A stretch of 64,000 bases of DNA, from positions 36,488 to 100,487 of the forward strand of contig CAYSUM010000001.1 of assembly GCA_964434225.1 (NCBI GenBank), written 5' to 3'. Position 1 is the stretch's first letter. The number at the start of each line of letters is the position of its first letter. Positions 33,011 through 35,157 of the stretch are shown in pieces. Origin of the DNA: an uncultured Rhizobium sp. (GTDB taxonomy: Bacteria; Pseudomonadota; Alphaproteobacteria; Rickettsiales; UBA1997). The translations under genes were made by a program, and so were the position numbers. The notes below the pieces were generated by a model that was given only the letters and a program-made list of their open reading frames with translations, made no database searches and was not told the origin of the DNA.

Positions 33011-33358
33011 ATGGCAAAAAATATCGCGATTAAAAAAATTTTATTGATCTCCGGTTTTTTAGTTTCGACAACTTCTTGCTCTTTACTTATCGAGCCGATG
33101 CCAAGCAGTTGGAATAGCGGTTTTGGTCCGCGTCCTTTAACTGGAGTTCGCAATTTTCCTTCAACTGACAGCGAATATGGCAAAGGCTTTAAAGATGGCT
33201 GTCATTCCGCTTGGGACGTTATGTCCAAAGGGCTTTTGTCGGACATAAATCAAAAAAAATACGATTACAAAAGAATGCAACAAAGCCCTGATTACAACAC
33301 GGGCTGGTACGATGGTTTTGAACAATGCACCTATATTCTTGACCATGACGTTACATAA
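33011..33358 (+). CDS. Small predicted lipoprotein, paralog 1 of 5 (two-Cys G[WF]xxGC family, function unknown)
   Basis: Signal peptide ending LVSTTSC, motif A EYGKGFKDGCHSA, motif B YNTGWYDGFEQC. Confidence 0.7.
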   Translation: MAKNIAIKKILLISGFLVSTTSCSLLIEPMPSSWNSGFGPRPLTGVRNFPSTDSEYGKGFKDGCHSAWDVMSKGLLSDINQKKYDYKRMQQSPDYNTGWYDGFEQCTYILDHDVT

Positions 33359-33698
33359 AAAAATTATACTTTTATCGGTTTTGTGCCTTGGAATCAGCGC
33401 TTGCGTTATGCCAACTCATTCTGGCTTTTGGAATCCCATTACTTTAGATACAAGGGTTCCTGACGGACCGCCAGAATTTAAAGCTGGTTGGTATGCTGGA
33501 TGCAAAACGGGCTCAAGTCTTAAATCATTTGCCAATAACACTGTCTTTCAAAAAGATAGCGGACCTGATATTGGTAGCGGGGTTTATACTCACGATCCCG
33601 TCTATCAAAGCGCTTGGGGTCAAGGTTGGTTTGCTTGTGCAGTCTATACTGGCACCTTCGCAGCAAGGTCATCTTTAGAATTTTCTCCCCTAGATTAA
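33345..33698 (+). CDS. Small predicted lipoprotein, paralog 2 of 5
   Basis: The ATG at 33345 gives MTLHKKIILLSVLCLGISAC. Motif A PEFKAGWYAGCKTG, motif B YQSAWGQGWFAC. Confidence 0.7.
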   Translation: MTLHKKIILLSVLCLGISACVMPTHSGFWNPITLDTRVPDGPPEFKAGWYAGCKTGSSLKSFANNTVFQKDSGPDIGSGVYTHDPVYQSAWGQGWFACAVYTGTFAARSSLEFSPLD

Positions 33699-33701
33699 AA
33701 T

Positions 33702-34058
33702 ATGAAAATCATTCGATTAGTATTGTTAATAAGTGCCCTATTTTTGGCATCTTCGTGTGAGAGCTACATGGCCGAAATTTTTCCAGAAAGACCAACTCAC
33801 GAGATGGACGATTCTTTGGTAAATGCCTCACCCGAATTCCAACAAGGCTGGCGCGATGGCTGCGAAACTGGCATGGCTTCTGGAAGTAACACTTTTTACA
33901 AAATGTTTTATCGAAGCAATAAAGTGGATGGCTATAAAATGGCTGGATCAACTGACTACAAAACCGCTTGGAGCAATTCTTACTGGTATTGCTACCGAGC
34001 CGATTACATCAAGCAAAAAAGTCCTATCTGGAGATCAATGTTTAGCGGCGTACAATGA
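33702..34058 (+). CDS. Small predicted lipoprotein, paralog 3 of 5
   Basis: Lipobox LFLASSC, motif A PEFQQGWRDGCETG, motif B YKTAWSNSYWYC. Confidence 0.7.
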   Translation: MKIIRLVLLISALFLASSCESYMAEIFPERPTHEMDDSLVNASPEFQQGWRDGCETGMASGSNTFYKMFYRSNKVDGYKMAGSTDYKTAWSNSYWYCYRADYIKQKSPIWRSMFSGVQ

Positions 34059-34639
34059 TTAAAATCTCAAAAAATATCCTGCTTGTAGTTTTTTTATTTT
34101 TTAGCTTCACCTCTTGTCGCTGGATTGCTGGCGCCAGCACTCCTTACTATTCTTGGACTAATTTTAAAATTCCCGAAGGAACTCCAGTTTTTCAAGCGGG
34201 CTTTAAAGATGGCTGCTCTTCAATTTTATATGCTCGTGGTAACGACTTTTACCGCTCGCGTTATAGTTACAGATACGATCCAACCATGATTGGAAATACC
34301 GAATATCGCTTTGGCTTTCAGCGCGGCAGTAGCTGGTGTTTCCAAACCATCATTACTCCACAACATGGTCCCAGAAATGGTGGTATTACCAGATTTTTAT
34401 TCGCCCACGGTGCTGACAGCTGGGGCTTTGATGCTAGTCCCGGAAGCATCAATAGCACGGGACTTTTCGGTGGCAGCGTAGAAAGTCCGATTTCAGGATC
34501 GAGCAGTATTAATCCGCTATTCGACGTATTCCAAAAAGGTACTAATGCTGGTGGCGTTGGTGGCGTTGGTTATACGGCATTTGGTGCAAACCCAATGTGG
34601 TCTGGTGGTTCAAGCGGTCAATTTCTTGGTTGGTATTAA
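34055..34639 (+). CDS. Predicted lipoprotein, paralog 4 of 5, with a Gly/Ser-rich C-terminal tail
   Basis: ATGA overlap with paralog 3. Lipobox FSFTSC, motif A PVFQAGFKDGCSS, motif B YRFGFQRGSSWC. The tail is GGVGGVGYTAFGANPMWSGGSSGQFLGWY. Confidence 0.7.
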   Translation: MIKISKNILLVVFLFFSFTSCRWIAGASTPYYSWTNFKIPEGTPVFQAGFKDGCSSILYARGNDFYRSRYSYRYDPTMIGNTEYRFGFQRGSSWCFQTIITPQHGPRNGGITRFLFAHGADSWGFDASPGSINSTGLFGGSVESPISGSSSINPLFDVFQKGTNAGGVGGVGYTAFGANPMWSGGSSGQFLGWY

Positions 34640-34641
34640 TT

Positions 34642-35157
34642 ATGCACAAAAAAATCTTCTTAATTTTATTTGCTTGTTTTTTAGCAAGCTGTTCTACGCC
34701 AAATTGGTATAAGCCTTACGGCTATTTACTATTTAGACAAATGCCAAAAAACGGCAGTCCAGGATTTAAATTAGGCTGGACTCATGGCTGCGAATCTGGC
34801 TTAGGATCGCAATTTGGCGGTGCGTTTTACATGTCGTTTTATACTTGGAAACGCGATCCTGACATTGCGTCTGTCGATCCTAATATTCCAAGAATCAGAG
34901 CGCGTTACAAAAAAGAATTAAAAGACGTCAATTGGGATAATCCCGCCGAAGTGAAGAAAAACCTTAGTGATTACAATACAATTTTTTGGGGCGCGCACGG
35001 TTTTTGTCACGGTTCTGCACTTGGTATTTTGTACACCGCCGATATGGAGCCACCCCTTCCGGGTCAACCGCGCTACGATATGGGAGCCCACGGCATCGGA
35101 AACGTCTTCAAACTTGGCGCTCGTGATACAAGATTGGGTTCGAGCGGCATGTGGTAA
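34642..35157 (+). CDS. Predicted lipoprotein, paralog 5 of 5
   Basis: The ATG at 34642 gives MHKKIFLILFACFLASC. Motif A PGFKLGWTHGCESG, motif B NTIFWGAHGFC, with an insertion of about 30 aa between the motifs. Confidence 0.7.
   Translation: MHKKIFLILFACFLASCSTPNWYKPYGYLLFRQMPKNGSPGFKLGWTHGCESGLGSQFGGAFYMSFYTWKRDPDIASVDPNIPRIRARYKKELKDVNWDNPAEVKKNLSDYNTIFWGAHGFCHGSALGILYTADMEPPLPGQPRYDMGAHGIGNVFKLGARDTRLGSSGMW

Follow-up and report, generated by a model that had tools for sequence, protein, structure and literature searches.

Five collinear lipoprotein paralogs of an uncharacterised two-cysteine family are a candidate envelope complex of environmental Rickettsiales

Environmental Rickettsiales sit between free-living Alphaproteobacteria and obligate intracellular pathogens, and to our knowledge their envelopes are essentially unstudied. 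Here, we analyse a tandem array of five small genes, P1 to P5, in a 64,000-nucleotide stretch of DNA (the window) from a genome recorded as an uncultured Rhizobium sp. and placed by GTDB in the Rickettsiales lineage UBA1997 (GenBank assembly GCA_964434225.1, contig CAYSUM010000001.1, positions 36,488 to 100,487 of the forward strand). An earlier note, made from the letters alone, had read the array as an operon of divergent lipoproteins that share two cysteine motifs, here called motif A and motif B. By profile–profile comparison the five genes are true paralogs and, as far as sequence comparison reaches, they define an uncharacterised family with no model, structure, name or literature. The five genes probably serve a joint task in the cell envelope and are probably not interchangeable genes for immunity or surface variation. 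The reading we favour, tentatively and with a little less than even confidence, is that they are five non-redundant subunits of a putative hetero-oligomeric envelope lipoprotein complex with a disulfide-stapled two-helix hairpin core. That this would be a new five-subunit lipoprotein complex with a new hairpin fold, ancestral to a broad group of environmental, partly epibiotic Rickettsiales-type Alphaproteobacteria, we regard as possible but doubtful. An operon of exported lipoproteins is ordinary in kind; what is new is the family and its deeply conserved five-paralog organisation with signs of joint function.

Membership of one family is clearest at the level of profiles. When the mature window proteins are compared pairwise with phmmer, the similarity is weak but consistent (20–28% identity, 3–27 bits). 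Aligning profiles built from about 30 orthologs per paralog with hhalign gives 97% for P2–P3, 96% for both P3–P4 and P3–P5, 95% for P2–P4 and 92% for P1–P4; eight of the ten subfamily pairs lie at 88–97%, P4–P5 reaches 70%, and P1–P5 aligns over only a short segment (6%). P3 is the most central family member. A profile made from 86 distant-array sequences alone finds all five window proteins, at E-values of 3.5e-21 to 6.8e-13. Because the profile–profile matches, this independent profile and the conservation among orthologs agree, we take the motif pair to be a family signature and not a product of chance, which bears out the central claim of the earlier note.

Each of the five window proteins satisfies a lipobox rule of the PROSITE PS51257 type (a basic n-region, an uncharged hydrophobic core and [LIVMFWSTAG](2)-[LIVMFYSTAGCQ]-[AGS]-C within the first ~35 residues), with two Lys or Arg among the first eight residues. 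The lipobox Cys is residue 23 in P1 (TTSC), 20 in P2 (ISAC), 19 in P3 (ASSC), 21 in P4 (FTSC) and 17 in P5 (LASC), and every ortholog in the five alignments (30–34 sequences each) has Cys at that position, so that the lipobox-like Cys noticed earlier in each of the five genes stands. The strict rule is satisfied by 48–76% of distinct orthologs, the others differing only at −2/−3, and Asp at +2 occurs in none of the five window proteins. Apart from the lipobox Cys, each mature protein holds exactly two further Cys, one in motif A and one in motif B. Recomputed spacings agree with those first reported: from P1 to P5, the motif A Cys follows the lipobox Cys by 41, 33, 35, 33 and 33 residues, and the motif B Cys follows the motif A Cys by 42, 45, 43, 41 and 72 residues. 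Both motif Cys are kept in at least 95% of orthologs, so the shared motifs are not a chance alignment, and both are invariant in 75 distant members.

Beyond this common frame the paralogs differ. In P1 motif A is EYGKGFKDGC and motif B is YNTGWYDGFEQC; its 30 orthologs are 52–78% identical, with C1, C42 and C84 of the mature protein conserved in at least 95%. Orthologs of P2 share 42–67% identity and those of P4 40–65%. P4 consists of the core domain and a Gly/Ser/aromatic-rich tail that ends in GWY and is less conserved than the core. P5, the most conserved paralog (mean column identity 62%), has ~30 extra amino acids inserted between motif A and motif B and is extended at the C terminus, where an invariant Trp (W155) is the last residue; it also carries His near both motif Cys (H32-G-C34 and H103-x-F-C106), each kept in at least 90% of 61 orthologs. 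Most members other than P5 have an Asp ahead of the motif A Cys. All mature parts are aromatic-rich (14–18% Trp, Tyr and Phe), and they differ in charge, P1 to P3 being acidic and P4 and P5 basic (mature P4 has a net charge of +2.9). Because each of the five subfamilies has its own invariant residues outside the common motifs, the five copies do not appear to be redundant.

The earlier note had been unable to place the family, and our searches agree with it. Scans of the five proteins against Pfam and NCBIfam, and a sequence-profile search of the PDB, gave no match at E≤10; PADLOC gave none, PHROGs returned only an insignificant match of P1 to phrog_9670 (unknown function, E 0.03), and tblastn against phage and plasmid collections found nothing. 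Homolog searches recovered 277 proteins with the P2/P3 profile and 301 with the P5 profile, all without Pfam domains, and those that are named are called ‘hypothetical protein’. A literature search on Rickettsiales lipoprotein paralogs yielded nothing specific. AlphaFold2 models of mature P3 (ma9123e839f8b; predicted local distance difference test score (pLDDT) 72.8, predicted template modelling score (pTM) 0.63) and mature P5 (m05ba4a3f9045; pLDDT 82.4, pTM 0.73) are all-helical, and Foldseek comparison of both with PDB and BFVD found nothing at E≤0.001. Motif A lies in helix 26–42 and motif B in helix 66–86 of the P3 model, and in helices 24–38 and 85–116 of the P5 model, which places one invariant Cys in each of the two main predicted helices. 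By 10-residue block, the P5 model averages >90 over residues 11–40 and 51–110 and ~81 over 41–50, and its tail (120–155) is of low confidence, which would fit disorder or dependence on a partner. A conserved disulfide, as first suggested, is thus plausible, since both Cys are invariant, they fall one per main predicted helix and the protein is exported; the pair of Cys is observed, and the bond itself would be a prediction.

The array is widespread and strikingly constant. A scan with P3 that covered one genome per species gave 36 related loci, almost all of which hold orthologs of all five genes by tblastn and hidden Markov model mapping. Among the loci fetched, from species-level genomes, all 60 distinct complete arrays have the order P1-P2-P3-P4-P5, each paralog has 1:1 orthologs at about 40–83% identity, and incomplete arrays are mostly cut by contig ends. 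Nearly all carriers are metagenome-assembled genomes (MAGs) whose labels read Rickettsiales or Alphaproteobacteria; lakes and groundwater are their main sources, and the closest relative is Rickettsiales bacterium UBA2645 (P3 83% identical). Many MAGs of the same clade (L004, L014, L016, L018, L102, L210 and others) bear implausible species labels, such as Rickettsia typhi, Lentimonas sp., Rhizobium sp. Q54, Ulvibacter sp. and Gammaproteobacteria, and record titles are unreliable for taxonomy here. For closer ortholog pairs the ratio of nonsynonymous to synonymous substitution rates (dN/dS) is 0.00–0.53 and mostly <0.15 in every gene; by this measure purifying selection acts on each of the five. 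Scanning DNA with the degenerate motif G-P-P-x-[YF]-x-x-G-W-x-D-G-C-E added 20 further loci, almost all labelled Rickettsiales, with a G+C content of 35–54%. Where the contig permits, these distant loci hold five tandem paralogs of recognisable types, mostly a P1-like gene first, then P2-like, P3-like and P4-like genes and a long-tailed fifth gene. Since such divergent lineages carry it, the five-gene operon appears to be old. Recurrent neighbours at related loci are either the same housekeeping genes as in the window or genes that on inspection of their sequences are thiL-, nusB- or riboflavin-synthesis-like, and no toxin, effector or secretion-system gene is adjacent in the window or at the related loci examined. 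The neighbours are housekeeping genes that differ between lineages, and the unit is self-contained.

Of our operational criteria for a complex, co-occurrence with conserved order and close spacing, and gene fusion (the Rosetta-stone pattern), are both found. The fusions are of two independent kinds, each of adjacent paralogs: P0146 joins gene 4 and gene 5 of the L035 type (55% and 49% identity), and P0137, P0135 and L117:4655-5275 (− strand, 206 amino acids) join type 2 and type 3, leaving arrays of four genes that still encode five domains. We also count the acidic character of P1 to P3 against the basic character of P4 and P5 in favour of a complex, as complementary charges. Purifying selection on every gene, the invariant residues peculiar to each subfamily and the persistence of other members in genomes where P5 stands alone point the same way.

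On the complex reading, the five lipoproteins would stem from ancient duplications, in a host that is an environmental (freshwater) Rickettsiales-type alphaproteobacterium. The five genes would be co-transcribed, with overlapping or abutting stop and start codons favouring coupled and roughly equimolar translation. Each product would leave the cytoplasm through Sec and be lipidated and cleaved at its invariant lipobox Cys, as expected from what is known of Sec, Lgt, LspA and Lol, and the lack of Asp at +2 suggests passage to the outer membrane under the E. coli rule, although Alphaproteobacteria may not follow that rule. The other two invariant Cys would be oxidised in the periplasm, as expected from the Dsb pathways, to a single disulfide holding together a compact two-helix hairpin. 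Gly residues occupy positions i, i+4 and i+8 of motif A (G-W-x-D-G-C-x-S-G), and in helix 1 the sequence G-W-x-D-G-C-x-S/T-G would form a small-residue face suited to tight packing on an aromatic face of helix 2 (motif B, Y-x3-W-x6-C). Because these faces and the disulfide would build the hairpin, the shared motifs may be mainly a fold signature. Specificity would then reside in paralog-specific N-terminal linkers, in surfaces and in the tails of P4 and P5 (Gly/aromatic-rich, that of P5 ending in Trp), and each paralog would fill its own position in the assembly. Its role could possibly lie in envelope architecture, or in tethering or docking another envelope component.

The family extends beyond the arrays. 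An exhaustive HMMER search of 1.84 billion representatives gave 618 clusters at E≤0.001. Five of the relatives found (P0142, P0176, P0149, P0151 and P0268) are very Arg/Lys/His-rich and carry 4–10 tandem copies of a 45-amino-acid unit, Y-x-x-G-Y-x-D-G-C ... Y-R-R-G-W-x-x-G-x-x-x-C, which contains only the two motifs. P0142 is a 309-amino-acid protein with four repeats from a Campylobacterota MAG (MEA3418518.1), and proteins of this type indicate that the two-Cys module also exists as a repeat protein outside Alphaproteobacteria. A single-domain relative of 94 amino acids, P0252 (L038:8001-8285, also L039:567-851), stands alone on the opposite strand among phage genes (Phage_Mu_F, tail terminator, tail tube and tape measure), a position typical of phage ‘moron’ genes; tblastn of P0252 against the GenBank phage collection found nothing similar. 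The top HMMER match, P0121, was rejected as a false positive, its family Cys being absent and its score a sum of 4–9-bit repeat matches. P0121, an unusual protein in any case, is an Ala/Thr/Val-rich chain of 5692 amino acids with ~21 copies of a ~255-amino-acid repeat.

Several observations weigh against a five-subunit complex. Co-conservation and collinearity would also be expected of five proteins with separate actions in a single pathway, and we know of no established rules for outer-membrane sorting in Alphaproteobacteria. The single genes, one of them in a phage-like region, and the 4–10-fold repeats suggest that the domain does not need four partner subunits in order to work. The array is also split in some genomes. 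P5 stands alone with 4–6 kb of flank in about ten loci; P1 is still present in eight such assemblies (CAXNJM01, JAJTDS01, CAMCME01, CAMDGT01, CAMAYG01, CAMDJN01, CANEUR01 and JBLHNE01), on another contig or 60–290 kb away, and where the locus could be read P4 or P1 to P4 are also present elsewhere. On the 1.2-Mb UBA1997 contig CAXNJM010000001.1 the broken array has P5 near 58 kb (L072, 52155–64622) and P1 with P4 near 350 kb (L199, 347745–354020), ~290 kb apart, and P2 and P3 were not located. Two genomes have a lone P3-like gene at the locus examined (L023:7992-8354 and L029:7938-8348). Linkage is hence not obligatory, as the split arrays and the lone P3-like genes indicate. In L199, P1 and P4 are ~1.5 kb apart, with a long open reading frame (ORF) at 3243–4295 and another at 4258–4821 between them. 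Upstream of each lone P3-like gene is a gyrB-like ORF, and gatC-like and coaBC-like ORFs come after the P3-like gene (all assigned by eye); of the two genomes, the marine single-cell genome AH-709-P14 has a P5 ortholog on another contig (L112), and JAYQKE01 has a P1-like gene on another contig (L211).

The array might instead encode five independent binding or inhibitor proteins, each with its own target among enzymes or ligands that act in the periplasm or come from a host, such as lytic enzymes made by an algal host or by competitors, with the operon serving only for co-regulation. We consider this unlikely. Small exported lipoproteins with a predicted rigid, disulfide-stapled scaffold and paralog-specific surfaces would suit such a task, and lone-gene relatives exist, among them the moron-like gene inside the phage head/tail module. 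Known inhibitor and immunity lipoproteins (MliC/PliC, Ivy, LprI/DUF1311 and type VI immunity lipoproteins) are likewise small, exported, often lipidated and sometimes in tandem. According to a preprint, members of the UBA1997 family are small rods that live on freshwater cryptophyte algae, to which they are attached, and some array-bearing genomes are assigned to this family by name. However, no toxin, effector, hydrolase or secretion gene adjoins the array in the window or at the related loci examined; unlike immunity arrays, the array keeps exactly five members, which stay 1:1 orthologous across deep divergence; selection is strongly purifying; scans of Pfam, NCBIfam and PADLOC gave no match to a family of inhibitors, immunity proteins or defence proteins; and the fusions of neighbouring paralogs point to joint action. 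The absence of an adjacent effector, the fixed number and order in 60 arrays and the purifying selection speak against the immunity or inhibitor array that the earlier note had suggested.

Its other suggestion, diversification of surface proteins, fares worse. If the five were adhesins or antigens displayed on the surface, which would attach the cell to a eukaryotic host and owe their variety to the paralogs, the lipoprotein anchor, the aromatic richness and the low-complexity tails would find an explanation, and at least one array lineage is described in that preprint as an algal epibiont. Yet the sequences are conserved and not diversified, as both dN/dS and the column identity of P5 attest, and the same five genes are kept across many lineages of unknown lifestyle with a G+C content of 35–54%. 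No variation in copy number was seen, and the five genes contain neither repeats nor phase-variation tracts. We regard this explanation as improbable.

A periplasmic redox or metal role, in which the two invariant Cys are functional thiols or ligands and not a structural disulfide, we hold to be slightly more improbable still. The Cys pair is invariant family-wide, the two conserved His of P5 lie close to it, and in most of the remaining members an Asp comes before the motif A Cys. However, when exported proteins have paired Cys, these usually form structural disulfides; there is no CxxC or known metal-site motif and no match to a redox or metallochaperone family in Pfam, NCBIfam or PDB sequences, the His residues are specific to P5, and the surroundings hold no conserved partner gene for a cytochrome, a copper protein or a thiol oxidoreductase. 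Finally, the weak pairwise similarity of the window proteins taken alone would allow the shared motifs to be a chance product of low-complexity aromatic/Gly sequence, with some ORFs not being genes, but we give this practically no credence, since it is refuted by profile matches of up to 97%, an independent profile at E≤7e-13, about 30 or more conserved orthologs per gene, the 618 clusters and dN/dS well below 1.

Three likenesses to known proteins are worth recording beside the complex that we favour. DUF2799 (PF10973) is an uncharacterised family of proteobacterial proteins with no known function, whose members we take to be small and lipoprotein-like, with motifs of the W/Y-x-x-G-x-x-D-G and Y-x-x-G-x-x-G-x-x-x-C type. 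The repeat protein P0142 has a sub-threshold match to it (E 2.4e-4, 21.9 bits against a cut-off of 25) that sits exactly over its Y-x-x-G-Y-x-x-G-C motif. In contrast, the five window proteins gave no match to PF10973 at E≤10, and only one of 75 distant members gave one, below threshold. A search with the 45-amino-acid repeat profile for DUF2799 proteins returned nothing, and the literature searched does not mention the family. Judged on these alignments, the kinship is a lead only and not a classification. Helicobacter cysteine-rich proteins (Hcp) and Sel1-like repeats are exported proteins made of antiparallel helix pairs, each disulfide-bridged, and by analogy the relatives with 4–10 units, each of which has the Cys pair, resemble that arrangement. 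However, PF08238 matches neither the window proteins nor the 75 distant members, among which are the tandem-repeat proteins; the motifs are different, neither model resembled any solved structure, those of Hcp included, in the Foldseek comparison, and the window proteins are single-domain lipoproteins in a set of five. Small helical, disulfide-containing outer-membrane lipoproteins that pilot or stabilise envelope machines, such as secretin pilotins of the PulS/OutS type, are similar in their mature length of ~100 amino acids, lipid anchor, helical prediction and conserved Cys, and by analogy they are a possible model for how the module might dock onto a partner. Unlike pilotins, the array comprises five distinct paralogs, has no Pfam or structural match, and lacks secretin or secretion genes nearby in the window and among the recurrent neighbours of related loci.

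With an order retained by 60 or more species-level genomes and recurring in much more divergent lineages, the five-gene array is a strong candidate for a core envelope component specific to this clade, and we regard it as a solid, well-delimited lead for the envelope biology of environmental Rickettsiales. Defining the family would add a new domain family of at least 618 clusters at 50% identity, and would provide a testable target for how these bacteria build their outer membrane or contact hosts. Were the complex real, it would be a lineage-wide envelope machine or scaffold without counterpart in model bacteria, with its 45-amino-acid module recurring elsewhere, both in tandem repeats (a Campylobacterota MAG is one case) and in a lone gene carried by a phage. 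If the five are merely separate binding proteins, the interest is modest.

The five same-strand ORFs are packed with the lengths and junctions first described (Table 1). According to the ORF list, P1 and P2 overlap by 14 nucleotides, P2 and P3 are separated by 3 nucleotides, P3 and P4 share an ATGA overlap, and 2 nucleotides separate P4 from P5. Internal starts were taken for P2 and P5 because a normal signal peptide results. The tight junctions and the single hairpin downstream make the five genes look like one transcription unit that ends before nuoL. Its promoter is presumably in the intergenic stretch upstream; sigma-70-like matches in the scanned region were no commoner than in shuffled sequence, and none fell within that stretch. 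The hairpin itself (35217–35242) begins 60 nucleotides past P5 and has an 11-bp stem with five G-C pairs and a 4-nucleotide loop, followed by the T-run. A degenerate palindromic-repeat remnant had been proposed at 35158–35200, but no such repeat was found there; the hairpin downstream, which has no second copy in the window, is better taken for a terminator-like structure, and Rfam gave no match within 32700–35400. No additional family member was found outside the array in the window.

Table 1 Coordinates of the lipoprotein array and its flanks in the window.
Feature	Position	Strand	Length	Remark
P1	33011-33358	+	115 amino acids	ORF start as listed
P2	33345-33698	+	117 amino acids	internal ATG 33345, start MTLHKK
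P3	33702-34058	+	118 amino acids	ORF start as listed
P4	34055-34639	+	194 amino acids	ORF start as listed
P5	34642-35157	+	171 amino acids	internal ATG 34642, start MHKKIF
Intergenic, divergent GT61 gene to P1	32807-33010			sole non-coding stretch upstream of the array
Terminator-like hairpin and T-run	35217-35252	+		between P5 and nuoL

Upstream, the divergently oriented gene at 31775–32806 is a GT61 glycosyltransferase, as the earlier note had it (PF04577, E 3e-23). The window neighbours comprise MurJ, Usp, Alph_Pro_TM, TauE, YgfZ-like, GT61, NuoL, flavin reductase and M48 peptidase genes. Directly 3' of the lipoprotein operon lies nuoL, and the next gene is not a nuo gene and encodes a flavin-reductase-domain protein (window 35283–37849), a pairing found again in 9–12 related loci; the N-terminal ~70 residues of the flavin-reductase-domain protein form a Lys/Leu/Ile-rich, repeat-like extension (EKILHNKIFSEKILNNKLLNETIL). 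Two direct repeats flank the array and may be regulatory: an 18-bp unit present 1.9 times at 32800–32835, which spans the start codon of the GT61 gene and adjoining intergenic sequence, and the 11-bp unit AAATTTCACAT present 2.3 times at 35258–35282, which ends 2 nucleotides before the nuoL start. A search of the window with ARAGORN returned neither tRNA nor tmRNA genes; the G+C content of the window is 34–43% and its GC skew is mostly negative throughout.

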